DNA of 64,000 nt from an uncultured Gemmatimonadales bacterium (lineage in GTDB: Bacteria > Gemmatimonadota > Gemmatimonadetes > Gemmatimonadales > GWC2-71-9), in the NCBI GenBank assembly GCA_963695185.1, contig CAVOGH010000005.1, positions 1,621,504-1,685,503 of the forward strand. Reading direction: 5' to 3'. The notes under the pieces were generated by a model. That model searched no databases, was not told where the DNA came from, and worked only from the letters and a program-made list of their open reading frames with translations. Shown piece after piece: positions 15,801-43,515 of this stretch; the stretch's first letter is position 1, and each line of letters starts with the position of its first letter. The translations under genes and the position numbers were made by a program.

Positions 15801-15926
15801 GTCGCACACCTAGGGCGTCACTGAGCCGGCTACGTGTCCGCTGCGCTCCGTGACCCCGGAATCCGGCGTGGCCCCCGTGGGTGCTTGTCACGCCGGGCCG
15901 CCCTCTCTCTCACAGCGCAGAGCCAT

Positions 15927-18269
15927 ATGAGACGGGTCGATCGGAGGACGTTCCTCAAGGGGGTCGGAGTGGTCTCCGCGGCGACGGCCGCCTCGGCGGT
16001 GGTCCCGGGCATGGCGCTCCCGGCAACGAGCCCGGCCTTGCCGGGCGAGTCCGGCACCGCCTGGCACAAGACGCCCTGTCGTCTCTGCGGGGTGGGGTGT
16101 GGCCTCCTGGTCGGGATCCAGAACGGACGGGCGGTAGCCGTGAAGGGGGATCCCGACTCGCCGGTGAGCAGGGGATTGGCCTGCGTGAAGGGCTACAACT
16201 CGGTGCATGCCCTCTACGGGGCCGATCGGCTCACGCGGGCCAAGGTACGACGGGATGGTGTGCTGGTCGAGGTGCCGCTGAGCGAGGCGCTCGACCTGGT
16301 GGCGCGCAAGCTCCGCGACACGGCCCAGCGGCATGGCAAGAACAGCGTGGCGGTCTACGGCTCGGCCCAGTGGACCATCCCGGACGCCTATATCGCCTCG
16401 AAGCTGTTCAAGGGCGCGCTGGGGACCAATAACGTGGAGACCAGCACACGCCTGTACGCCGCCAGTGGCATGGCAGGCCTCCAGACCAGCTTCGGTCTCG
16501 ATGGCACGATCGGCTGCTACGAGGACATCGAGCACGCCGACTTCTTTGTGTTGTGGGACATCAACCTGGCCGAAACCGACCCTGTGCTGTTCTCCCGCAT
16601 GCTGGACCGCAAGCGGGCCAACCCGGCGGTTCGCATCATCGATATCGCCACCCGTACCACCCGCACCAGTTACGCCTGTGATCACTCGCTGCTGCACGCG
16701 CCGCACGCGGGGCCGGCCATCGCCAATGGGGTCTGCCACGAGATCGTGGCGCGGAAGTGGGCACAGCGCGAGTTCCTCGATCAGCACGTCGCATTCAAGC
16801 GCGGCAGGACCAACATCGGCGACGGTCTCGCCGACGATGCCCTCCTCGCGGACGAGGCCACCGACGCCACCTGGAACGAGTACGTCGCCTTCCTGGCCGA
16901 CTACCAGCCGGAGCGCGCCCAGGAGCTGTGCGGCATGTCGGCGGCCAGCATCCGCTGGCTGGCGTCGCTCTACGGCGACCCGTTGCGCAAGGTGATGTCC
17001 CTCTGGGGTCAGGAGGTGAACCAGGATGTGCGCGGCACCTGGATGAACAACCTGCTCTACAACATTCATCTGCTGGTGGGCAAGGTCGCGACCCCGGGCA
17101 ACAGCCCCCTCTGCCTCACCGGGCAGCCCGGCGGCGGCAGCGGGGTGCACGATGCCGGCAGCCTGACCCACACGCTGCCCCGTGGGTTCGTGCAGAAGGA
17201 GGAGGACCGCCGCCGGGCCGCCGACATCTGGGGCGTACCGGCGGAGACCATCGACCCCCAGCCCACCGGCCCGGCGCTCTCGATGTTTCGCCGGCTGGAA
17301 CGGGGCGATATCCGGTTCCTCTGGATCTCGGCCACCGATCCGATGGTCAGCCTCCCCAACCTGGACCGCTACCGCCGTGCGGCGCGCAGCGGGGACCGCT
17401 TCATCGTCGTCTCGGAAGCCTACCCGACGCCCACGACGGACGTGGCGGACGTCGTTCTTCCCGCGGCGATGTGGCTGGAACGCGAGGGCATCTACGCCAA
17501 CGCGGAACGGCGCCTGCAGCACTTCGCGCGGATCGTGACGCCCCCCGGGGACGCGACCAGCGACGCCTGGCAGATGATCGAGGTCGCCCGACGGCTCGGT
17601 TTCGAGAAGCTCTTCCCCTTCGATTCCCGCCGTCACGTCGAGCAGATCTGGGAGGAGTACGGCCGCTTCCACCGGGAGCCACCCAGCGCGCTCCCGCCCC
17701 TCGCCGAACTGCGCGCCCAGCCGGGGGTGCTGTGGCCGTATGCGGCAGGCCGGGGAACCCGGTGGCGCTACAACGCCGCGCAGGACCCCGCGGCCGACGG
17801 TTCCCGAGGTGCCTTCGACTTCTACGGCCACCCGGACCACCGCGCGTGGATCTGGCTCCGCCCCTACGAGCCCCCGGCGGAGTCGCCAGACCGGGAGTAT
17901 CCGGTGTGGCTCACGACCGGCGCCGTGCTGGAACAATGGGGCACGGGCTCGATGACCCAGCGCATCCCGACGCTGCACCGCGCCCTGCCCCATGCATATG
18001 TCGAGATCAACAAGGACGACGCTCGCGACCTGGGCGTCCGGAATCGCGAGGCCGTCCGGCTGCTGAGCCGGCGCGGCTCGATCGAGCTCGAGGCCCGTAT
18101 CGACTATCGCTCTCAGCCGCCCCGCGGCCAGGTCTTCGTCCCCTCGTTCGATGAGGCGCGGCCGGTGAATCGGCTCACCCTGGACGCCTGCTGTCCGCTG
18201 TCGGGGCAGCCCGATGGCGGCAAGTGTGCGGTGCGGGTGGAGCGGCTGCCGGGCCGGGGCGGCCCGTGA
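15927..18269 (+). CDS. NapA-like periplasmic molybdopterin (bis-PGD) oxidoreductase with non-canonical Mo-ligand position
   Basis: Tat motif RRTFLKG and CRLCGVGCG...C 4Fe-4S motif. Collinear by eye with E. coli NapA along its full length. RHCMAS is replaced by RLYAAS. Intact 780 codons. Confidence 0.9.
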   Translation: MRRVDRRTFLKGVGVVSAATAASAVVPGMALPATSPALPGESGTAWHKTPCRLCGVGCGLLVGIQNGRAVAVKGDPDSPVSRGLACVKGYNSVHALYGADRLTRAKVRRDGVLVEVPLSEALDLVARKLRDTAQRHGKNSVAVYGSAQWTIPDAYIASKLFKGALGTNNVETSTRLYAASGMAGLQTSFGLDGTIGCYEDIEHADFFVLWDINLAETDPVLFSRMLDRKRANPAVRIIDIATRTTRTSYACDHSLLHAPHAGPAIANGVCHEIVARKWAQREFLDQHVAFKRGRTNIGDGLADDALLADEATDATWNEYVAFLADYQPERAQELCGMSAASIRWLASLYGDPLRKVMSLWGQEVNQDVRGTWMNNLLYNIHLLVGKVATPGNSPLCLTGQPGGGSGVHDAGSLTHTLPRGFVQKEEDRRRAADIWGVPAETIDPQPTGPALSMFRRLERGDIRFLWISATDPMVSLPNLDRYRRAARSGDRFIVVSEAYPTPTTDVADVVLPAAMWLEREGIYANAERRLQHFARIVTPPGDATSDAWQMIEVARRLGFEKLFPFDSRRHVEQIWEEYGRFHREPPSALPPLAELRAQPGVLWPYAAGRGTRWRYNAAQDPAADGSRGAFDFYGHPDHRAWIWLRPYEPPAESPDREYPVWLTTGAVLEQWGTGSMTQRIPTLHRALPHAYVEINKDDARDLGVRNREAVRLLSRRGSIELEARIDYRSQPPRGQVFVPSFDEARPVNRLTLDACCPLSGQPDGGKCAVRVERLPGRGGP

Positions 18270-19075
18270 GTGGCGACCGGCACCCGACGGCGGTCGCGCT
18301 GGGACTCTTCCTGGCGGCGGCCGCCGCCACGGCGGTGGCCGCGGGGAGCGTAGCGCTGAAACGCGGCGCCCAAGCGCGGGCGCGGGCGCCCGTGCTCGTC
18401 CCGGTCGGCATCGTGGCCGCGCCGGAGGAGCCGATCCATGCGGAGGCGCAGGTGTTCCGTACCACCCCCGCGATGCTGGCGCTGGTACCCGCGACTCGCC
18501 GGGAACGCTCGGCCCACCCGCGCACCCTGAAGACGGTACGCTTCCTCCGCGCCTATGAGGGCGCGCCCCCACGCATCCCGCACCCCCTCACGGCCGACGA
18601 GTTCCGCACCGACGCCTGCCGGACGTGTCATGAGCGTGGTGGCTACTCGGTGCGCTTCTCCGCGTACGTGCCGCTGACGCCGCACCCGGAACGCGGCATC
18701 TGTCTCCAGTGCCATGTGGGCGAGGACGCCGTCCTGGGCGTGGCCGAAGCCAGCAGGAATCCCAACTCCCGGTGTCCGCTCTGTCACGGGCCCAGCGGCG
18801 GCCCGGTCCGGGCCGCCGCCTCGGCGACGTGGCCGACGACGGTCTGGCCAAGGCTCTCCCCGAAGACACCGGACCGCGCCCCTCCGCCGGTCCCGCACGA
18901 CCTGCAGTACCGGCAGAACTGCCTCACCTGCCATGCCGGCCCCGCGGCCGTCGCCGAGATCCGCACCACTCACCCGGAGCGGGCCAACTGCCGCCAGTGC
19001 CATGTCCTGCTGGATCCGGAAGCAGAGGCCTTTGTTCGTCCCGCGGGAGTGGTCGCCTACGGAGATGCACCATGA
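18266..19075 (+). CDS. membrane-anchored pentahaem cytochrome with two NapB-like modules
   Basis: The GTG overlaps the napA-like stop (GTGA). It has a TM helix and five CxxCH motifs. Two modules match the NapB signature: PPRIPH...CRTCH...CLQCH and PPPVPH...CLTCH...CRQCH. Confidence 0.75.
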   Translation: MSGDRHPTAVALGLFLAAAAATAVAAGSVALKRGAQARARAPVLVPVGIVAAPEEPIHAEAQVFRTTPAMLALVPATRRERSAHPRTLKTVRFLRAYEGAPPRIPHPLTADEFRTDACRTCHERGGYSVRFSAYVPLTPHPERGICLQCHVGEDAVLGVAEASRNPNSRCPLCHGPSGGPVRAAASATWPTTVWPRLSPKTPDRAPPPVPHDLQYRQNCLTCHAGPAAVAEIRTTHPERANCRQCHVLLDPEAEAFVRPAGVVAYGDAP

Positions 19076-19797
19076 ACCAGACACTGTACGGGAGCGCCGT
19101 GGTGTGCGTTGCAGCGGCATGGCTGGTCTCCAGTTGCCGTCCGACCGACCCGGCGCATGGAAGTCCCGCGCCGGGGGAGACGGTCGCGGTGACGATCGAC
19201 TCGGCGACCGCGGCCCGGAACGCGACCCTTGAGCCCGGCGCGCTCGCGACCGTGCCCGCGGTCCCGGTCGAACGCTGGAAGGGACCGGGCGAGCGCCCCT
19301 TCGAGGTGGCTCTTCGGAGTGCCGTTCCCGAGGCCGGACACGCGCGCATGTTCGGCACCATCACGCTGCCGATCGCGCTCCGCAGCCGCACGGCTGCCAT
19401 CAACCAGTATCCCTGCACGTCCTGCCACCTCGGCCGGAAGGTGATCATGGCCAACCGCCGGATCGGCGATGCCCACAACAACATCCAGCCGGTGCACCCG
19501 GAACAGACCGGGGCCGTGTGTTCGACCTGCCACTCGGACGGCGACGTGGCGCTGCTGACCCTCAAGGGCGGGGAGCGGGCGACGCTGGATGAAAGCTACC
19601 GGCTGTGCGCGCAGTGTCATTTCCCGGAGGCGAAGACGTGGGCGGGCGGGGCGCACGGGAAGCGACTCGATGGCTGGCAGGGACGGCGAGTCGTGATGGC
19701 CTGCACCGACTGCCACGACCCGCACATGCCCGCGGTCGAGGTGCGCATCCCCTTCCGCGCGCCGGAACTCGAGCGCAGCCGCGGTGGCAGCCGATGA
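19072..19797 (+). CDS. tetrahaem c-type cytochrome lipoprotein
   Basis: ATGA overlap with the upstream stop. Lipobox LVSSC. Haem motifs CTSCH, CSTCH, CAQCH and CTDCH. Confidence 0.8.
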   Translation: MNQTLYGSAVVCVAAAWLVSSCRPTDPAHGSPAPGETVAVTIDSATAARNATLEPGALATVPAVPVERWKGPGERPFEVALRSAVPEAGHARMFGTITLPIALRSRTAAINQYPCTSCHLGRKVIMANRRIGDAHNNIQPVHPEQTGAVCSTCHSDGDVALLTLKGGERATLDESYRLCAQCHFPEAKTWAGGAHGKRLDGWQGRRVVMACTDCHDPHMPAVEVRIPFRAPELERSRGGSR

Positions 19798-20772
19798 CGG
19801 CCGAGCGATCACCCGGCGAGCCGACCGGCGCCGGAGACGCCAGCCTCCTGCAGAAGTGCGTCGACCGGCGCGGGGCACTGGGCATCCTCGCCGGGGGCAT
19901 GGCCGCCGGGATGCAGGCGGTGAGCGCGTGTACACCGCTCAGCGCCGAGACGGACGAGGAGCGCGAAGTCAAGCTCCTGGCCTGGCGGGAGTACATCAAG
20001 GGCAACTACCGCTTCATGACGGAGGCCGAGCGAGCGGAGACGATCGCCCGCCTCGAGCGCCTCGCCCAGCTGCAGCACGGCGTGGACGTTTCCATCCAGT
20101 CCACCGGCGCCCAGCCCGGCGTGGTGTTCGGCTACGCCTTCAACATCTCGAAGTGCAAGGGGTTCCGTCGCTGCATCGAAGCCTGCATCAACGAAAACAA
20201 CCTCGACCGCAATGCCGACACCCAGTACATCCGGATCTTCGAGATCGAGGACGGCAACGTGGATCTCGACGAGGGGGACGCGACCTTCCAGCACGAGGTG
20301 CCGGCGGAGGGCCACTTCTACCTGGGAACCCAGTGCTTCCAGTGCGCCAACCCGCCCTGCGTGAAGGTCTGCCCCGTCGGCGCCACCTGGCAGGAGCCCG
20401 ACGGCATCACGGTCGTCGACTACGACTGGTGCATCGGATGCCGCTACTGCATGGCCGCCTGCCCCTACTGGGCCCGGCGCTTCAACTGGGGCGATCCCGA
20501 GGTGCCGCCGGAGGAGGTCAACCCCAACCAGCACTACCTGGGGAATCGCGCCCGCATGAAGGGACGGGTCGAGAAGTGCACCTTCTGCATCCATCGCACC
20601 CGGCAGGGCCGCCTGCCCGGCCTGCGCCGAGGCGTGCCCCACCGGGGCGCGGGTCTTCGGCAACCTGCTGGATCCCGACTCGGAGATCCGGTGGGTGCTC
20701 GCCAACAAGCGGGTGTTCCGGCTGAAAGTGGATCTGAAGACCGAGCCGCGCTTCTGGTACTTCAGCGATTGA
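19794..20772 (+). CDS. NrfC/DmsB-type 4x[4Fe-4S] protein, copy 1; one frameshift near 20618
   Basis: ATGA overlap with the upstream stop. Tat-like DRRGALGILAGG. Four Cys clusters (CKGFRRCIEAC, CFQCANPPCVKVCP, CIGCRYCMAACP, CTFC...ACAEACP). Confidence 0.85.
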
Positions 20773-20779
20773 GGTAACG

Positions 20780-22069
20780 GTGCATCTGCGGCCTTTCCTC
20801 GCGAACGCCCTGGAGTCGGCCACCAACGGTGGCCGGCGCTACCACCTGTGGATGGCACTGCTCACGCTGATCATGCTCGTCGGCGCCTATGCGTACTCGG
20901 TCCAGTGGCGGTATGGACTCAGCGTCACCGGTATGAACGACCATGTGAGCTGGGGGCTCTACATCTCCAACTTCACGTTCCTGGTCGGGCTGGCCGCCGC
21001 CGCGATGATGCTGGTCCTGCCGGCGTACATCCTGGAGGACGTGGATTTCGGCCGGGCCGTGCTCATGGCGGAAGCCGTCGCCGTGGCCGCGCTGGTCATG
21101 TGTCTCGGCTTTGTGGTCGTGGATCTGGGCAACCCGCTGGGGTCCTGGCACCTGACGCCCGGCATCGGCTATCTCAACTGGCCCCGGTCGCTCCTGGCCT
21201 GGGACGTGATCGTGCTGAACGGCTACCTGGCGCTCAACCTGGCCATCCCGTTCTACATCCTCTACACCCGCTATGCCGGCCGCTCGCCGGCCAAGCACAA
21301 GTACCTGCCGTGGATGTACATCTCCGCGATGTGGGCGGTGAGCATTCACCTGGTCACGGCGTTTCTCCTGGCGGGGCTGCCGTCCCGGCCATTCTGGAAC
21401 ACGGCGCTGCTGGGACCCCGCTTCCTGGCCTCGGCCTTCACCGCCGGCCCGGCATTCGTGATCCTCCTCCTGTATTTCATCCGGCGGACCACGAGGTATC
21501 CCATCACCGACGGCGCGTTCGCCAAACTGGCCCTGATCACGACCGTCGCCTCGCAGGTCAACATCATGATGCTGATCTCCGAGTTGTTCTACAAGTTCTA
21601 CTCCCCGACGCATCACGGCATCAACGCCAAGTATCTCTTCTTCGGGCTGGGCGAGCACCACGCGCTGGTCCCGTGGATCTGGACCGGGATCGGGCTGAGC
21701 ATCGTGGCCACGATCATCCTCATGATGCATCCCCTGCGGCGCGATCCCCGCTGGCTGATGCCGGCCTGTGCCATGCTGTTTGTCGGGATCTGGATCGAGA
21801 AGGGGATCGGCCTGGTGGTGCCCGGCTTCATCCCCTCGCCCCTGGGAGAGATCGTCGAGTACACCCCGACCTGGGTGGAGCTGTGCGTGACCGCCGGGGT
21901 CTGGGCGCTGGGCCTGTTCGTCCTGACCATCCTGGTGCGGGTCGCCCTGCCGATCGAGCTGGGGGACGTGCGAAGCCCGTACCTGGAAGCCCCGCCGCCC
22001 GCCCGGGGCCTCCGCCCGCGCGCCGTCCGCGCCCGGTATGAGGACATCCGGCCGGTCCGGAAACGCTGA
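20780..22069 (+). CDS. NrfD/PsrC-family polytopic quinol-interacting membrane subunit, copy 1
   Basis: Intact 429 codons with about 10 hydrophobic helices, 8 nt after nrfC-like copy 1. Family call made from overall pattern. Confidence 0.8.
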   Translation: MHLRPFLANALESATNGGRRYHLWMALLTLIMLVGAYAYSVQWRYGLSVTGMNDHVSWGLYISNFTFLVGLAAAAMMLVLPAYILEDVDFGRAVLMAEAVAVAALVMCLGFVVVDLGNPLGSWHLTPGIGYLNWPRSLLAWDVIVLNGYLALNLAIPFYILYTRYAGRSPAKHKYLPWMYISAMWAVSIHLVTAFLLAGLPSRPFWNTALLGPRFLASAFTAGPAFVILLLYFIRRTTRYPITDGAFAKLALITTVASQVNIMMLISELFYKFYSPTHHGINAKYLFFGLGEHHALVPWIWTGIGLSIVATIILMMHPLRRDPRWLMPACAMLFVGIWIEKGIGLVVPGFIPSPLGEIVEYTPTWVELCVTAGVWALGLFVLTILVRVALPIELGDVRSPYLEAPPPARGLRPRAVRARYEDIRPVRKR

Positions 22070-22121
22070 TTGCGACCGCCGGCGCCGCGCCGGCTGACTT
22101 TTCTTCTGCGAGGTAAGACAC

Positions 22122-23097
22122 ATGACCAGACATCGGCCCAACGACACCCGGTATTCGTTCGCCGCTCTCGCCGCCGGGCTGGTGGGGGCGGCCGGGCTGG
22201 CGGGCGGACTGTTCCTCGCGGGCATCGCCCGCCCGGTCGCGGCCGTGGCGGGCCTGGCCCTGGGCGTGCTGCTCGCCGCCTCGATCAAGTACACGGACCA
22301 GTGGGAGAAGGCCGTCGTGCTGCGGCTGGGCCGGTACCAGGGCCTGCGCGGTCCCGGCTCTTCGGCGTCGTGCCGATCATCGACCGGGTGAGCTACCACA
22401 TCGACCAGCGGATCCGGACGACCGCGTTCGGCGCCGAGTCGTGCCTGACGCGGGACACGGTGCCGGTGAACGTGGATGCCATCGCGTTCTGGATCGTGCG
22501 CGACGCCGAGCGGGCGGCGCTCGAGGTGCAGGACTACGAGCAGGCCGTCATGCTCGCCGGCGCAGACCGCGCTCCGCGACGCCATCGGCAAGCACGACCT
22601 GGCGGAGCTGATCCAGTCGCGCGAGGAGCTCGGCCACGGGCTCGAAGATGGCGCTGGACCAGAAGATGCACGACTGGGGGATCCAGGTGCAGTCGGTGGA
22701 GATCCGCGACGTCATCATCCCGGAGGCGCTCGAGGACGCCATGTCCCGCCAGGCGCAGGCGGAGCGGGAGCGGCAGGCGCGCATCATCCTCGGCACCGCC
22801 GAGACGGAGATCGCCTCACAAGTTCGTCGAGGCGGCGAACGGCTACCGCGACCACCCGGTCGCCATGAACCTGCGCGCCATGAACATGCTGTACGAGAGC
22901 ATCGTGAAGCGGGGCTCGCTCATGGTGGTGCCGTCGGGGCTGGCCGACTCGCTCAACGTCCCCTCCATGATGGGCATGATGGGCGCCGGCGGCCTGGTGC
23001 CGCGAGACGGCGAGGGCCGCGCGGCCCTTACGCATGGCGGCGAGGGTGCCGGACCGGCAAGGGGACGGCCCCGCATGTGGCCAGTGAAGCACCCTAG
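22122..23097 (+). CDS. SPFH/band-7 (stomatin-like) membrane protein, copy 1; about 4 frameshifts
   Basis: TM helix followed by YTDQWEKAVVLRLGRY..., VDAIAFWIV and QAERERQARII. The tail GKGTAPHVASEAP in the frame of ORF 22648..23097 parallels the copy 2 tail GHGKEPEVTGRK. Confidence 0.75.
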
Positions 23098-23211
23098 GGA
23101 CCGCCGGCCGCGAGGCAGGCGGCCCCGCTTGCCGAGCGTCAGGCTGGCGCGGCATCCAGCCGCGAATGCCCTACGGGCGCCGGGACTCGAACGAACCAGG
23201 AGCCCTGACCG

Positions 23212-24192
23212 ATGAGCACGAGCCGCACACCGAGGTGCCCGACAGCGCCGATGACGGCACGGTGCTGCAGAAACGGGTCGATCGGCGCGAAGGCGATGGG
23301 CCTCCTGCTGGGCGGGCGTGGCCACCGGCGCGGCCGCGGTAAGCGCGTGTACGCCGCTCTCTGCGGCGACGCCCGAAGAGCGCGAACTGAAGCTGCTCGA
23401 ATGGCAGCAGTTCTTTCAGAAGCACTATCGCCGCATGACCGCGGAGGAGCGTGCCGAGACCGTCCAGCGGCTCGAGCGGCTGGCCAAGCTCCACCACGAT
23501 CAGGACGTCACCATCGCCACATCTGACGCCATACCCGGAGTGCTCTTCGGTTATGCCTTCAACATCTCGAAGTGCAAGGGGTACCGGCGCTGTGTCGAGG
23601 CCTGCATCAATGAAAACAACCTCGACCGGGAAGCCGACACGCAGTACATCCGGATCTTCGAAAAGGAAAGTGGTGTTGTCGATCTCAACCACGCGGACGC
23701 GACCTACCAGCACGAAGTGCCGGCGGAGGGCCACTTCTATATCGGGACCCAGTGCTTCCAGTGCGCCAACCCGCCCTGCGTTCCGGTCTGCCCGGTGGGC
23801 GCCACCTGGCAGGAGCCCGACGGCATCGTGGTCATCGACTACAACTGGTGCGTTGGATGCCGCGCCTGCATGGCCGCCTGCCCCTACTGGGCCCGGCGCT
23901 TCAACTGGGACGTGCCCGAAGTGCCCCTGCAGGAGGTCAACCCCGACCAGCATTACCTCGGGAATCGCGCCCGCAAACAGGGCTGCACCGAGAAGTGCAC
24001 GTTCTGCATCCATCGCACCCGGCAGGGCCGTCTGCCGGCGTGCGTCGGAGGCGTGCCCCACCGGGGCGCGGATCTTCGGCAACCTGCTGGATCCCGATTC
24101 CGAGATCCGCTGGGTGCTGGCCAACAAGCCGGTCTTCCGCCTGAAGGAAGGATTGCGGGACGGAACCGCGCTTCTGGTACTTCACCGACTGA
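23212..24192 (+). CDS. NrfC/DmsB-type 4x[4Fe-4S] protein, copy 2; about 4 frameshifts
   Basis: ORF 23318..24241 is collinear with copy 1 and has the same four Cys clusters. The N-terminus (MSTSRTP.. / TVLQKRVDRR / KAMGLLLGG) is split over three frames. Another shift lies near 24047. Confidence 0.75.
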
Positions 24193-24199
24193 GGCGATC

Positions 24200-25496
24200 A
24201 TGCACCTCAGAGCCTTCCTCGTGAGTGCGCTGGGGCGGTGACCTCAGGCGGACCGCCGCTACCACCTCTGGATGGGCGGGCTGACGGCCATCATGCTCCT
24301 CGGGGGCTACGCGTACTTCGTTCAGGTCACCGACGGGCTCGGCGTCACGGGCATGAACGACCACGTGAGCTGGGGGTTGTACATCTCCAACATGGCGTTC
24401 CTCGTCGGGGTCGCGGCCGCGGCGGTGATCCTGGTGATGCCGGCATACGTCCTGCACGACGTCGACTTCAGCAAGGCGGTGCTCATCGCGGAGGGGGTCG
24501 CGGTCTCCGCCCTGGTCATGTGCCTCGGCGTTCGTCATGGCCAACAGCCCCGGCCTCCCGTTGCAAGTGGTGGCGCCTCACACCGGTCGTCGGACTGCTG
24601 AACTGGCCCGACTCGATGCTGGCGTGGGACGTGATCGCCCTGAACGGCTACCTGGTGCTGAACCTCGCCATCCCGTTCTACATCCTCTACAGCCACTATG
24701 TCGGGCGGGAGCCGGCGAAGCACAAGTACGTGCCCTTCATCTACCTGTCGGTCGCGTGGGCGGTGAGCATTCACCTCATCACCGCGTTCCTCTTCGCCGC
24801 CCCGCCGGCGCGGCCCCTGTGGAACTCGCCGCTGCTCGGTCCCCGTTTCCTGGCCTCGGCCTTCACGGCCGGGCCCGCCTTCATGATCCTGCTGCTCGGG
24901 TTCATCAGGTCCAACAGCCGTTACCCGATTTCGGACGTGGCGATCAGCCAAGCTGGCCACCGTCACCACCGTCGCTGCGCAGATCAACCTGGTGATGCTC
25001 TTTTCCGACCTGGTGTTCGAGTTTCGCTTTCCCGACGCATCACAGCCTGAGCGCCCGGTATCTCTTCTTCGGCCTGGGCGAGCACCACGCGCTGGTCCCG
25101 TGGATCAGGACGGCGATCGCGCTCAACGTCACCGCCACGGTCATCCTCATGATGCATCCCCTGCGGCGCATCCCGCGCTGGTTGATGCCGGCCTGCGCCA
25201 TGCTGTTTGTCGGGATCTGGATCGAGAAGGGGATCGGCCTGGTCATTCCCGGCTTCATCCCGTCGCCCCTGGGGGAGATCGTCGAGTACACCCCGACCTG
25301 GGTGGAGCTGTGCGTGACCGCGGGCATCTGGGCGCTGGGCCTGTTCGTCCTGACCATCCTGGTGCGGGTCGCCCTGCCGATCGAACTGGGGGACGTGCGA
25401 AGCCCGTACCTGGAAGCCCCGCCGCCCGCCCGGGGCCTCCGCCCGCGCGCCGTCCGCGCCCGGTATGAGGACATCCGGCCGGTCCGGAAACGCTGA
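24200..25496 (+). CDS. NrfD/PsrC-family membrane subunit, copy 2; at least 4 frameshifts
   Basis: Pieces in ORFs 24272.., 24238.., 24992.. and 25149..25496 are collinear with copy 1. The last ~60 codons are identical to copy 1. Confidence 0.7.
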
Positions 25497-25548
25497 TTGC
25501 GACCGCCGGCGCCGCGCCGGCTGACTTTTCTTCTGCGAGGTAAGACAC

Positions 25549-26475
25549 ATGACCAGACATCGGCCCAACGACACCCGGTATTCGTTCGCCGCTCTCGCCG
25601 CCGGGCTGGTGGGGGCGGCCGGGCTGGCGGGCGGACTGTTCCTCGCGGGCATCGCCCCCCCGGTCGCGGCCGTGGCGGGCCTGGCCCTGGGCGTGCTGCT
25701 CGCCGCCTCGATCAAGTACACCGACCAGTGGGAGAAAGCCGTCCTCCTGCGGCTGGGCCGCTACCGGGGCCTGCGCGGTCCCGGCTACTTCGGCATCGTG
25801 CCGATCATCGACCGGGTGGCCTACACCATCGATCAGCGGATCCGGACCGCGGCGTTCGGCGCCGAATCGTGCCTGACCCGGGACACGGTGCCGGTGAACG
25901 TCGATGCCATCGCGTTCTGGATCGTGCGCGACGCCGAGCGGGCGGCGCTGGAGGTGCAGGACTACGACGAGGCAGTCATTCTCTCGGCCCAGACCGCCCT
26001 CCGCGACGCCATCGGCAAGCACGACCTGGCCGAGCTGATCCAGTCGCGCGTGGAGCTCGGCCATGGGCTCGAGATGGCGCTGGAGCAGAAGATGACGAAC
26101 TGGGGCATCCACGTGCAGTCGGTGGAGATCCGCGACGTCATCATCCCCGCCGCCCTCGAGGACGCCATGTCCCGGCAGGCGCAGGCCGAACGGGAACGGC
26201 AGGCCCGCATCATCCTCGGCACAGCCGAGACGGAGATCGCCCACAAGTTCGTCGAGGCGGCCGCCGCCTACCGCGACCACCCCGAAGCCATGAACCTGCG
26301 GGCCATGAACATGCTGTACGAGAGCATCGTCAAGCGGGGCTCGCTCATGGTGGTGCCGTCGGGCCTGGCCGACTCGCTGAACGTCCGCTCGGTGATGGGA
26401 GCCGTGGGGAATACGGCGCTGCTGCCGCCGGTGGCAGGGCATGGCAAGGAGCCGGAGGTGACCGGCCGAAAGTAG
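25549..26475 (+). CDS. SPFH/band-7 (stomatin-like) membrane protein, copy 2
   Basis: Intact 308 codons with the same 52-nt spacer after nrfD-like as in copy 1. Confidence 0.85.
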   Translation: MTRHRPNDTRYSFAALAAGLVGAAGLAGGLFLAGIAPPVAAVAGLALGVLLAASIKYTDQWEKAVLLRLGRYRGLRGPGYFGIVPIIDRVAYTIDQRIRTAAFGAESCLTRDTVPVNVDAIAFWIVRDAERAALEVQDYDEAVILSAQTALRDAIGKHDLAELIQSRVELGHGLEMALEQKMTNWGIHVQSVEIRDVIIPAALEDAMSRQAQAERERQARIILGTAETEIAHKFVEAAAAYRDHPEAMNLRAMNMLYESIVKRGSLMVVPSGLADSLNVRSVMGAVGNTALLPPVAGHGKEPEVTGRK

Positions 26476-26729
26476 CCAAACCGATCGGATAGAACCGACC
26501 CTGCCGGGGTGGCCGAACACGGCCCCCCCCCGCCTGGCGGTGCCGCGTCCCGGCCTGGCTCAGACCAGCCTGTTCCCGGTTGGGCTCACCCCGACCATCG
26601 GGTTCCCGTTGGAGGCGTGTCCTGCAGCCGCCCAGGGCGGTCCTTGAGGCTCCTTGAGGGTCCGACCCCCTTCGTCCAGCCCGACCTCTCCCAATGCAAT
26701 TCTCCCCTCCGGGCGGCTAGATTTCCCCC

Positions 26730-27155
26730 ATGAAAAACGTCCGCCCGACCCCCATTCCTCATGGACTCCGGGGGGTGCTTGGGGCGGCCCTCCTGCTGCT
26801 AGCGGTCGCCTGCGACCAGCGGGACCGGCTGACGTTCACCGGTCCCCCGGTGCCGGGCGCAGGCCCGGTCACGACGGTCTACCGGCCTGCCGGAGACACC
26901 ACCGTTCCAGCTGGCCCGGGACTGGTAGTCCAGGGCAACTCCAGGGATCCCGACGGGATTGACACCTTCTATGCCGAGGTCGAGGGAGGGGTCACCACCT
27001 TCCCGCCGTTCCCGGGAGACGACTCGCTGTTCATTTTCGACCTGCCGGTGACGACCAATGGCCAGTCGGGGCAGACGATCACGGTGCGGCTGTTCGCCAC
27101 CGATGAGCGGGGCAACCGCGGCGACACGGCGACCCGCCGGATCACGGTGCAGTAG
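26730..27155 (+). CDS. lipoprotein, Ig-like/beta-rich, function unknown
   Basis: Intact ORF with lipobox LLLAVAC. Its stop overlaps the recF GTG (TAGTG). Confidence 0.6.
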   Translation: MKNVRPTPIPHGLRGVLGAALLLLAVACDQRDRLTFTGPPVPGAGPVTTVYRPAGDTTVPAGPGLVVQGNSRDPDGIDTFYAEVEGGVTTFPPFPGDDSLFIFDLPVTTNGQSGQTITVRLFATDERGNRGDTATRRITVQ

Positions 27156-28240
27156 TGCGGCTGGCCCGACTGACGGTGCGCAGCTTCCGGAACCTGGCCG
27201 ACAGCGACTACGAGATCCCGGCGGCCGGCATGGTGTTGCTGGGCCACAACGGGCAGGGCAAGACCAGCCTGCTGGAGGCGATCGCCTACCCGGTCCTGTT
27301 CCGCTCGTTCCGGACCCCCCTCGAGGCCGAGGTGGCGCGCTTCGGCGCGCCGGGGTTCCACACCGGCCTCGAATTCGTGCGGGGAGACCGGCTCCGGTCA
27401 GTAGCCGCGACCTTCCGCCTGGCCGGCCGCAAGAAGCAGCTCCAGCTGGACGGGGCCCCGGTGGACCGGGTGGTGGATGCGGCTGGGGCCTGGCTGGCGG
27501 TGGTGTTCTCGCCAGAGGATGTGCGGCTGGCGGGCGGGCCGGCGCAGGCTCGGCGGCTCTACCTCGACCGCACCCTGTCGCTCGCCGACCGGCACTACCT
27601 GCTGGCGCTGACGCGCTACCGGGCGGCCTTGGCGCAACGCAACGCCGCCCTCCGCCAGGGCCGGCTGGACCTGGCGGCGGCCTTCGACCGGCCGCTGGCC
27701 GAAGCCGGTGCCCAGGTGGTGTCCCGGCGGGTGGCGTGGACGGCCGGAGCGGCGGAGCCGTTCCGGCGGGCGCTGGTGTCGCTCGGCGAGCACGGCGGTG
27801 AACCCGACCTCGAGTACACCGGCCACCTGGAGCTGGCCGATGCCGGGGCGTGGCCGGCCAGACTGGAGGCGGCGCGGGGTCGGGATCAGGCGCGGGGAAG
27901 CACCTCGGTGGGCCCGCATCGCGACGACCTGACGTTGCGGCTGGGCGGCCGCCCGCTCCGGGACTACGGCTCGACCGGGCAGCATCGCAGCGCCGCTATC
28001 GCCCTCAAGCTGCTGGAGCTCGACAGCCTGACCGGCCCCGCCGGCGAACCACCGGCGCTGTTGCTGGACGATGTCTTCGCCGAGCTGGACCCGGACCGGC
28101 AGGCGCGGCTGGCGGAGCAGCTCTTTGATGGCCGGGGCGCGCAGGTGTTCCTGACGTCCCCCCGGGTCGATGAACTGCCGGCCGGCCTCTCGCTGGAGCG
28201 GTGGGGGGTCCGGGACGGAAAGGCAGCGGCCGAGCGATGA
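27155..28240 (+). CDS. recF: DNA replication and repair protein RecF
   Basis: Intact ORF with FRNL, Walker A GHNGQGKTSLLEAI, signature GSTGQHRSAAIALKL and Walker B LLLDDVFAELD. Confidence 0.9.
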   Translation: MRLARLTVRSFRNLADSDYEIPAAGMVLLGHNGQGKTSLLEAIAYPVLFRSFRTPLEAEVARFGAPGFHTGLEFVRGDRLRSVAATFRLAGRKKQLQLDGAPVDRVVDAAGAWLAVVFSPEDVRLAGGPAQARRLYLDRTLSLADRHYLLALTRYRAALAQRNAALRQGRLDLAAAFDRPLAEAGAQVVSRRVAWTAGAAEPFRRALVSLGEHGGEPDLEYTGHLELADAGAWPARLEAARGRDQARGSTSVGPHRDDLTLRLGGRPLRDYGSTGQHRSAAIALKLLELDSLTGPAGEPPALLLDDVFAELDPDRQARLAEQLFDGRGAQVFLTSPRVDELPAGLSLERWGVRDGKAAAER

Positions 28241-28574: not shown

Positions 28575-28620
28575 CACCCCGCGGCACAGGCACTATCTCC
28601 TACCACGAAGGCACCTATTC

Positions 28621-30562
<1,942 letters not shown>

Positions 30563-34345: not shown

Positions 34346-36352
<2,007 letters not shown>

Positions 36353-41701: not shown

Positions 41702-43515
41702 ATGGCAGCACCTACCACCCTGAACGAACTCTTCCTCGGCGCCCTCGATCGGTACGCCGATCGCCCGGTTGCCATGCGGGTCAAGCGCAATGACGCCTGG
41801 CAGGATATCTCCTACGCGGACGTGCGAGACAGTGTCCTGGCCATCGCCTTCGGCCTGCGGGAGCTGGGCGTGACCGCGGGGCAGCACGTGGCGCTCCTGT
41901 CGGAGAACCGGCCGGAGTGGGCGTTTGCGGACTACGCCTGCCTGCTCAACCGCTGCGCCGACGTCCCGGTCTATCCCACCCTCCCGTCGGGCCAGATCGC
42001 CTACATCCTCCGGGACTCCGCCGCGGTGGCGATCTTCGTCTCCAGCCGGGCACAGCTCGACAAGATTCTCGACATCCGCAGCCCGGACGTCACGCCCGCG
42101 CTGCGCACATCATCGCCATGGACCCCGACGCCACCGGGCCCGGGGTCATGCCGCTCAGCGAGCTGATGGACCGGGGCCGCGCGGCCGCGGCCAAGTATCC
42201 CCGCTGGAAAGAGGAGGCCTTGCAGGTCAAGCCGGGTGACCTCGCCACCCTGATCTACACTTCGGGCACCACCGGCGACCCCAAGGGCGTCATGCTGACG
42301 CATGGCAACCTGACCAGCAACGTGGTGACGGCCAGCGGCTGCATCGCCCTGGTAGACGGCGACGAGGCCCTCTCCTTCCTGCCGCTCTCGCACGTCTTCG
42401 AGCGGATGGCCGGGCACTACCTGCTGTGGCACGCCGGCACGCTGGTCAACTACGCCCAGAGCATCGACACGGTGTCGGCCGACATGCTCGAGCGGCGGCC
42501 CACCGTGGTGCTGTCGGTGCCCCGGCTGTACGAGAAGATCTATGCCCGGGTGCTGGAGGGATCGGCCAAGTCGCCGGTGAAGAAGAAGATCTTCGCCTGG
42601 GCGCGACGCTGGGGGGAGCAGTGGACCGACCTGGTGCTGGCCAAGCAGCCGGTGCCCGGAAGCATTGCGCTTCGCAAGGCCATCGGCGACAAGCTGGTCT
42701 TCTCCAAGCTGCGGGCCCGCACTGGCGGCCGGCTCCGGTTCTTCGTGTCGGGCGGCGCACCGCTTTCGGCGGAGATCGCCAAGTTCTTCTATACCGCAGG
42801 ACTGCCGATCTTCGAGGGATACGGCCTGACGGAGACCTCGCCGGTGATCTCGGTCAACACGCCAGACGCGATCCGGATGGGCACGGTGGGCCGGCCGATC
42901 CCGGGGGTCGAGGTCAAGATCGCAGGAGACGGCGAGATCCTCTGCCGCGGCCCCAACGTGATGAAGGGGTACTACAACAAGCCCGAGGCCACCCGGGAGG
43001 TGCTCGATGCCGATGGCTGGTTCCACACCGGCGACATCGGCGAGCTCGACCCCGCGGGCTTCCTGCGGATCACCGACCGCAAGAAGGACATCATCGTCAC
43101 CGCCGGCGGCAAGAACATCGCCCCGCAGCCGATCGAGAACCGGGTCAAGACCAACCCGTTCATCGTCAACGCAGTCATGATCGGCGACAAGCGCAAGTAC
43201 CCCGTGATGCTGATCGTCCCCAACCTCGAGGCCCTCCGCGGGTGGGCCGCCGAGCGGCAGATGAGCGTCGGCGATGACGCTGCCCTGATCGCCGATCGGG
43301 AGGTCAACGACAAGATCGAGCGGGAGGTGAAGCGGGCGCTGCGGGACCTGGCCCACTTCGAGATGCCCAAGAAGGTGCTGCTGATCGAGCGGGATTTCTC
43401 GATCGAGAGCGGCGAGCTCACACCCACGCTCAAGGTCAAGCGGCGGATCGTCGAGAAGAACTACCAGAAGCAGATCGACGCCCTCTACGCCGAGCCAGCC
43501 CCCGCGGGGGCCTAA
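41702..43515 (+). CDS. long-chain-fatty-acid-CoA ligase (AMP-forming); one frameshift near 42100
   Basis: AMP-binding motif LIYTSGTTGDPKGVMLTH, plus GYGLTETSP, WFHTGDIG and GGKNIAP. Confidence 0.85.

Follow-up and report, generated by a model that had tools for sequence, protein, structure and literature searches.

The region analysed here lies in a 64,000-nucleotide (nt) stretch of DNA from an uncultured soil bacterium of the Gemmatimonadales (contig CAVOGH010000005.1, positions 1,621,504 to 1,685,503), and this whole stretch is referred to as the window. In it, genes for a NapA-derived MopB subunit and for two multihaem cytochromes c are followed by an array of two consecutive units, each encoding NrfC, NrfD and an SPFH (Band 7) protein. 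We consider it quite probable that this tandem array is authentic and consists of two old paralogous modules, A and B, that its SPFH genes have undergone conversion and that the frameshifts of the assembled sequence are consensus errors.

The extent of the repeat was evaluated via a direct-repeat search and blastn. The segments 19828-22974 and 23245-26399 aligned over 3166 nt with 84.1% identity and a start-to-start period of 3417-3428 nt, and this pair was the sole large self-repeat of the window. In the 4.04-Mb, 9-contig genome as a whole, there was likewise no other large self-repeat and no third copy of the unit, and the flanks of the array were unique. Unit 1 (19794-23215) and unit 2 (23212-26475) carried NrfC, NrfD and SPFH in identical order. 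In both units, NrfC was separated from NrfD by 7 nt and NrfD from SPFH by 52 nt, and the Pfam families were the same (4Fe-4S dicluster, NrfD PF03916 and Band_7 PF01145). Each NrfD was immediately preceded by a protein of the 4Fe-4S dicluster family that carries a twin-arginine motif. The original prediction for this DNA, a 3.42-kb tandem duplication with the same three proteins, order and spacers in both units, was borne out by these results. Its boundaries were sound as well, since 19794 and 23212 are the ATG codons of NrfC-1 and NrfC-2, respectively, and 26475 is the stop of SPFH-2. The pairwise alignment confirmed the repeat but not the identity of 85-90% that had been estimated for most of the unit, because the profile was bimodal. 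NrfC and the first ~1000 nt of NrfD, together about two thirds of the unit, were only 75-83% identical between units. The identity rose to 93-100% across 21703-22303, where a stretch of 150 nt (22004-22153) had no difference at all, and was 89-93% over the rest of SPFH. The genes and features of the cluster were as follows.

15834-18269, forward strand: NapA-like MopB subunit with a twin-arginine translocation (TAT) signal; Pfam Molybdopterin, Molydop_binding and Fe4S4.
18224-19075, forward strand: cytochrome c with five CxxCH motifs in its translation; weak Pfam matches (NapB-like, cytochrome c7-like).
19072-19797, forward strand: cytochrome c with four CxxCH motifs in its translation; Pfam paired-CXXCH and cytochrome c3-like matches.
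19794-20772, forward strand: NrfC type A, DsrO-like 4Fe-4S subunit exported via TAT; frame shifted by a single surplus base at about 20616.
20780-22069, forward strand: NrfD type A, intact, 429 residues, integral membrane quinone-interacting subunit; Pfam NrfD, 1.3e-30.
22122-23215, forward strand: SPFH (Band 7) copy 1; 1-nt indels at 22360, 22559, 22645 and 22816.
21703-22303, matching 25130-25730, forward strand: probably the most recent gene-conversion tract, running from the 3' end of NrfD through the 52-nt spacer into the 5' end of SPFH.
23212-24192, forward strand: NrfC type B; about five 1-nt indels (near 23232, near 23290, and at 23314, 24047 and 24156).
24200-25496, forward strand: NrfD type B; six 1-nt indels at 24233, 24252, 24527, 24561, 24945 and 25034.
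25549-26475, forward strand: SPFH (Band 7) copy 2, intact, 308 residues; Pfam Band_7, 1.9e-35.

The score of NrfD-A against PF03916 was 107.6 bits (cut-off 25.8), and the pieces of NrfD-B aligned to residues 1-429 of NrfD-A. SPFH-2 reached 122.9 bits against PF01145 (cut-off 23.6), and a piece of SPFH-1 reached 34.1 bits. The homology of SPFH-1 to SPFH-2 stopped near 23020, and the 3' end of SPFH-1 is uncertain. The five-motif cytochrome was conserved in 60+ related loci. In both NrfC N-termini (19860-19935 and 23290-23345), a twin-arginine motif (VDRRGAL or VDRRE..) was followed by a lipobox-like A-V-S-A-C, and both NrfC proteins may be TAT-exported lipoproteins. The TGA of the SPFH-1 open frame overlapped the ATG of NrfC-2 at 23212-23215 (ATGA), and translational coupling at this point, amid the indel noise, is only putative. 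A GC-rich 7-bp hairpin with a T-rich tail was located at 25505-25521, in the 52-nt NrfD-SPFH spacer and inside the core of 100% identity; its counterpart in unit 1 lies at about 22078-22094 by the 3427-nt unit offset. This hairpin may act as an attenuator or mark a site of RNA processing between the two genes. It was the one notable hairpin in a promoter and terminator scan of 22900-27200, which gave no sigma-70-like promoter between the units, although unit 2 may still have a promoter of its own.

The distribution of the cluster was explored in two surveys. In the first, 40 relatives were searched for NrfD, which was present in six genomes of the same genus, this one included. The genome G020, from another species of the genus, had two full-length NrfD copies 3.3 kb apart on one 443-kb contig. 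Its gene order was MopB, cytochrome, cytochrome, NrfC, NrfD, SPFH, NrfC, NrfD, SPFH, and all six module genes were open. Unit 1 of the window was 82% identical to unit 1 of G020 and unit 2 was 84.7% identical to its unit 2, whereas the cross comparisons gave 78.8%. Both NrfD types were found in G019 and G013, on small contigs, and one copy was found in G007 and G017. The second survey, with one genome per species, returned 78 loci, onto each of which the six proteins were mapped. Nearly all of these loci belonged to metagenome-assembled genomes (MAGs) of Gemmatimonadales or Gemmatimonadaceae, and a few were labelled Longimicrobiales, Latescibacterota or Zixiibacteriota. The conserved cluster comprised MopB, cytochrome, cytochrome, NrfC, NrfD and usually SPFH. 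Two tandem NrfC-NrfD modules occurred in at least 10 of the 78 loci; the true number may be higher, as many of the loci are cut off by the edge of their contig. The layout A-S-B-S (S denotes SPFH) was observed in L016, L017, L018, L020, L067 and L078, and the layout B-A-S, with a single SPFH, in L041. The locus seems, from its gene layouts, to be a hot spot for module rearrangement. Several two-module loci were on k141 or NODE contigs (MEGAHIT- or SPAdes-style), i.e., in short-read assemblies. In L082, the SPFH gene was placed before NrfC-B. The duplication is not confined to this genome; it is an old and recurrent architecture of related loci.

The age of the two modules was evaluated via trees of NrfD and NrfC. 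One clade of the NrfD tree (clade B, 19 rows, with 100% support in the Shimodaira-Hasegawa-like approximate likelihood ratio test, SH-aLRT) held every second copy and the first copy of L041, together with the single-copy loci L060 (which is G007), L066, L068, L070-L073 and L082. All the other first copies and most single copies formed the other group (A). The same A/B split was obtained in the NrfC tree with 100% SH-aLRT support, indicating that NrfC and NrfD were inherited as a pair. Arrays with A only, with B only and with both types were all found. The amino-acid identity was 70-78% within a genome, whereas it was 82-87% between orthologues. On the evidence of the A/B clades and of these within- and between-genome identities, the split was shown to be older than the divergence of these Gemmatimonadales species, i.e., the duplication predates them. 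A recent duplication was ruled out by the trees and by the identity pattern, which is one of old paralogy plus conversion. The copies had been described as diverged paralogues rather than an assembly stutter, and the tandem orthologues in other species and the well-supported A and B clades uphold this description; the NrfD/NrfC phylogeny proposed for dating the duplication likewise gave two old clades. The ratio of nonsynonymous to synonymous substitution rates (dN/dS) was 0.11-0.19 for the window copies against orthologues, indicating that types A and B are both under purifying selection.

The SPFH genes had a different history. In the SPFH tree, the within-genome pairs were sister to each other with 96-99% support, and the A and B labels did not cluster. 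The two SPFH copies were 96-99% identical in amino acids within L016, L018 and L078, compared with 85-90% between genomes; the window's own pair was 87.5% identical, a value that includes error noise. According to the nucleotide identity profiles of six genomes, the homogenised tract comprised the last ~250-350 nt of NrfD and almost the whole of SPFH. The identity over SPFH and the NrfD 3' end was 93-100% within each of these six genomes and 74-91% between them, whereas the relation was reversed for NrfC and the 5' part of NrfD. This is partial concerted evolution, with within-genome copies closer than orthologues over one tract only. A single old event cannot explain the SPFH pattern because each species has its own SPFH sequence. 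Recurrent gene conversion over the NrfD 3' end and SPFH is the simplest reading of these profiles. That NrfC and the 5' part of NrfD escaped conversion suggests selection to keep A and B different.

Only two of the six module genes, NrfD-1 (20780-22069) and SPFH-2 (25549-26475), were open as written. In tblastn searches with intact relatives, NrfC-1 fell into 2 frame pieces, SPFH-1 into about 5, NrfC-2 into about 6 and NrfD-2 into about 5. These interruptions in four of the six genes were missed in the original prediction and are attributed here to consensus errors. Fifteen indels were resolved against intact orthologues of a sister species; all were of 1 nt, with 13 surplus and 2 missing bases, and the surplus bases often repeated a neighbour (ctgC|ccgg, gtcG|gagg, ctcG|gcg). 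A codon-usage Viterbi segmentation was used to detect same-strand frame switches without a bounding stop, of which there were ~750 genome-wide, or ~1.9 per 10 kb. When the same detector was applied to related loci of short-read-style assemblies (830 kb), the rate was 0.05 per 10 kb, and for related loci of "MFD" long-read MAGs it was 0.55 per 10 kb. The switches were patchy, and of all the 100-kb bins of its contig, the window fell in the worst one. Hot spots with 16-18 switches per 6.7 kb lay at about 265 kb of C1, 175 kb of C2, 2.5 kb of C3 and 2.008 Mb of C5. Among the neighbouring genes identified by Pfam, the essential gyrB (28618-30556) was in four frame pieces, ligA (34426-36331) in two and an AMP-binding enzyme (41714-43494) in two. 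After in-frame joining, the dN/dS of the window's broken genes against orthologues (0.11-0.19) matched the range of intact genes. Within each shifted frame, the GC content at third codon positions (GC3) was 0.9-0.97, and the terminal branches of the broken copies on the NrfD tree were normal in length. Because gyrB and ligA are broken likewise, the events number ~750 genome-wide and the dN/dS is normal, the evidence points to consensus errors of a noisy long-read MAG, not gene decay, as the source of the frameshifts in the four module genes.

MopB, NrfD or SPFH was also frame-split in four relatives (L045, L050, L067 and L068) from the MFD long-read MAG loci, indicating that the same type of error affects other Nanopore-only MAGs of the MFD set. 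The relatives named "MFD" appear to belong to the Microflora Danica set, the MAGs of which are Nanopore-only Flye assemblies with one round of Medaka polishing (PMC12313526). Programmed +1 frameshifting was considered for NrfC, as the frame of both copies shifts at the same motif, to within ~10 nt. This explanation was rejected, since the orthologues of G020 and G007 are single-frame and the surplus bases match the genome-wide type of error.

The residues at the quinone site were compared between types A and B. Two positions of the quinone pocket have been described, a Ser (ActC Ser164, QrcD Ser138) and a protonatable residue of transmembrane helix 2 (ActC His139, QrcD Asp120), and both are missing only in ActF (PMC8076601). 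The QrcD mutation S138A abolishes activity, whereas D120A keeps 68% of it (PMC13059093). According to phmmer alignments with two ActC structures, the quinone Ser of NrfD-A maps to PRSLLAWD and the acid to the Asp of VVVDLGNP. The pocket Ser was invariant in all 78 sequences (47/47 type A, 19/19 type B and 12/12 basal). The position aligned with the acid of helix 2 was Asp in 47/47 type A and 12/12 basal sequences and Asn in 18/18 intact type B sequences, where a one-residue insertion adjoins the Asn. By analogy with QrcD, the Asn of type B would be compatible with a working module, and the B-only genomes fit this. A tuning change rather than a loss is plausible for the Asp-to-Asn replacement, which hints at subfunctionalisation of type B and is a lead. 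The earlier idea of subfunctionalised paralogues thus holds in spirit, in view of the purifying selection on both types, the distinct A and B beside a homogenised SPFH and the Asn of type B.

The nature of the complex was examined through its MopB subunit and its closest known relatives. In an alignment with 3ML1 (NapA of C. necator; E 7e-185), MopB was clearly NapA-derived, and its molybdenum-ligand Cys motif RHCMAS read RLYAAS (16449-16469, residues ~206-212), with Tyr in place of Cys. Across the loci of 23 relatives, this position was Y, H, A, F or Q, and C in none. The subunit was below the NapA equivalog cut-offs (739 versus 904 for NF010055 and 722 versus 931 for TIGR01706). Since the molybdenum-ligand Cys is replaced by Tyr, MopB is probably non-catalytic and cofactor-less, and the earlier description of the duplicated modules as standing behind a single catalytic subunit is doubtful. 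In QrcABCD, a multihaem cytochrome c is combined with an inactive-site MopB-like subunit, a four-cluster iron-sulphur (Fe-S) subunit and a menaquinone-reacting NrfD-like subunit, and QrcB has neither cofactor nor enzymatic activity (PMC13059093). Alternative complex III (ACIII) has two paralogous NrfD-like subunits, one of which, ActF, is without the quinone-site residues (PMC8076601).

The best match of NrfD-A in the PDB was ActC of ACIII (E 3.8e-11). The cluster resembles the ACIII of Rhodothermus marinus (6F0K) in its haem-rich cytochrome, cofactor-less MopB-like part and NrfC-type Fe-S part, and in having two paralogous NrfD-like membrane subunits in one operon (here NrfD-A and NrfD-B). 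Unlike here, ActB fuses the MopB-like and Fe-S parts for both NrfD-like subunits; the cluster has separate genes with one NrfC per NrfD, an SPFH gene per NrfD, the quinone-site Ser in both NrfD types, and A-only and B-only arrays. The architecture of cytochrome, MopB-like, Fe-S and NrfD-like subunits is the same as that of QrcABCD from sulfate reducers, but this cluster has a second cytochrome, two copies of the CD module and an SPFH partner and comes from another phylum, and the scores against the NCBIfam Qrc models were far below their cut-offs (QrcB 67/440, QrcC 153/400 and QrcD 64/570). Judged by score and gene organisation, the cluster is not a member of either the Qrc or the ACIII family. 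A likeness to DsrO and DsrP of DsrMKJOP was also found. NrfD-A passed the NCBIfam DsrP model (403 bits, cut-off 350), and the intact G020 orthologue of NrfC-A was just under the DsrO cut-off (192.5 bits, cut-off 200). By gene content, however, the cluster has no DsrM, DsrK or DsrJ (the operon consists of MopB, two cytochromes, NrfC, NrfD and SPFH), and its NrfC and NrfD are accompanied by a NapA-like MopB and by multihaem cytochromes. The NrfC/NrfD pair is coupled to multihaem cytochromes as in NrfABCD of E. coli, where NrfCD is a quinol dehydrogenase that feeds the pentahaem NrfB, but NrfA is missing here. As for the periplasmic nitrate reductase NapAB, the MopB is NapA-derived but has the Tyr replacement and the sub-equivalog score given above. 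The literature searched, which included reviews on NrfD-like subunits and Qrc, gave no account of this Gemmatimonadales cluster or of a pairing of NrfD with SPFH.

We infer from the gene content that the complex shuttles electrons between periplasmic cytochromes and the quinone pool, in one direction or the other. Each NrfCD pair would be a quinone-pool module, in which the membrane subunit NrfD would bind quinone or quinol and the periplasmic NrfC would relay electrons via its Fe-S clusters, and the cytochromes would carry electrons to or from the periplasm. As the MopB is without the molybdenum-ligand Cys, the whole assembly would work in the manner of Qrc or ACIII and not as a nitrate reductase. 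The two modules may be specialised in the quinone used, in the direction of electron flow or in proton coupling, and selection would preserve the difference between NrfCD-A and NrfCD-B, whereas the SPFH scaffold genes, being interchangeable, are homogenised. It is a tentative proposal, more doubtful than not, that NrfCD-A and NrfCD-B are distinct quinone gates of one Qrc/ACIII-like complex (with opposite directions, different quinones or different proton coupling) that are marked by the Asp-to-Asn change, with SPFH as a dedicated partner of this NrfD lineage. If true, SPFH scaffolds would be linked to a respiratory module, a link for which no description was found.

The two modules might also be read as two halves of one complex, like ActC and ActF of ACIII, with type B as a non-quinone, ion-translocating partner. 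The closest solved structures to NrfD-A are indeed ActC chains, ACIII pairs two NrfD-like paralogues, the acidic residue is lost in type B, and the MopB is probably cofactor-less like ActB and QrcB. However, every NrfD is paired with a separate NrfC and, in most cases, a separate SPFH, there are contigs with a single module that is A only or B only, and the sole NrfD of G007, the only NrfD match in that genome, is of type B. Type B also retains the Ser on which QrcD activity depends and which ActF alone lacks, and we regard this reading as unlikely. Less credit still is given to a real but decaying array, in which the frameshifts would be real mutations that have left NrfD-A and SPFH-2 as the only functional genes. 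The interruption of four of six genes, a local frameshift density in the top 3% of windows and the seemingly reciprocal survival of NrfD-A and SPFH-2 speak for decay. Yet the death of both NrfC copies would strand NrfD without a partner, and gyrB and ligA, essential genes a few kb away, are broken likewise. Real gene decay is expected to show deletions of varied length, whereas all the indels here are of 1 nt with a 13:2 bias towards insertion. The broken copies equal intact orthologues in dN/dS and terminal branches, their GC3 stays at 0.9-0.97 in every shifted frame, and the false-positive rate of the detector is ~40 times lower on short-read relatives.

An assembly artefact, in which two strains or haplotypes, or two species of the metagenome, were joined head to tail, appears extremely improbable. 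Such an origin would suit a 9-contig MAG in which consensus errors are numerous and a 150-nt stretch is 100% identical between the units. The units differ by 16-25% over NrfCD, however, which is far beyond strain variation, and the order A then B is found on single contigs in at least 10 other MAGs from different studies and assemblers. Moreover, each of the clades A and B also occurs on its own, and the genome holds neither a third copy of the unit nor a second copy of the flanks.

Several points weigh against the interpretation of the array as two old modules with consensus errors, SPFH conversion and different quinone sites. In frameshift density, the array ranks among the top 3% of genome windows (8 frameshifts detected by the scan versus a mean of 1.3), and some of these may reflect real decay. 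The copy number and indels of this genome are those of the assembled sequence, and the functional reading of the cluster is drawn from sequence for every member. The unit is not uniform, as L054, L056 and L081 have the layout A-S-B, lacking the second SPFH. The equivalence of the Asp/Asn position comes from low-identity phmmer alignments to two ActC structures, and the replacement may have little effect, judging by the activity retained in QrcD D120A.

NrfCD-type modules in Qrc/ACIII-like complexes are already known, and the two-module NrfCD architecture with partial concerted evolution is a variation on them. As this case shows, apparent pseudogenes in Nanopore-only MAGs should be compared with essential genes before they are interpreted. 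Homogenised DNA (SPFH and the NrfD 3' end) and protected DNA (NrfC and the 5' part of NrfD) meet at a sharp border, a clean illustration of how selection limits gene conversion. The NrfD family provides a widespread and poorly understood coupling of periplasmic redox proteins to the quinone pool, and old paralogue pairs in one operon with a fixed change at the quinone site offer a ready-made comparison for the tuning of such modules.

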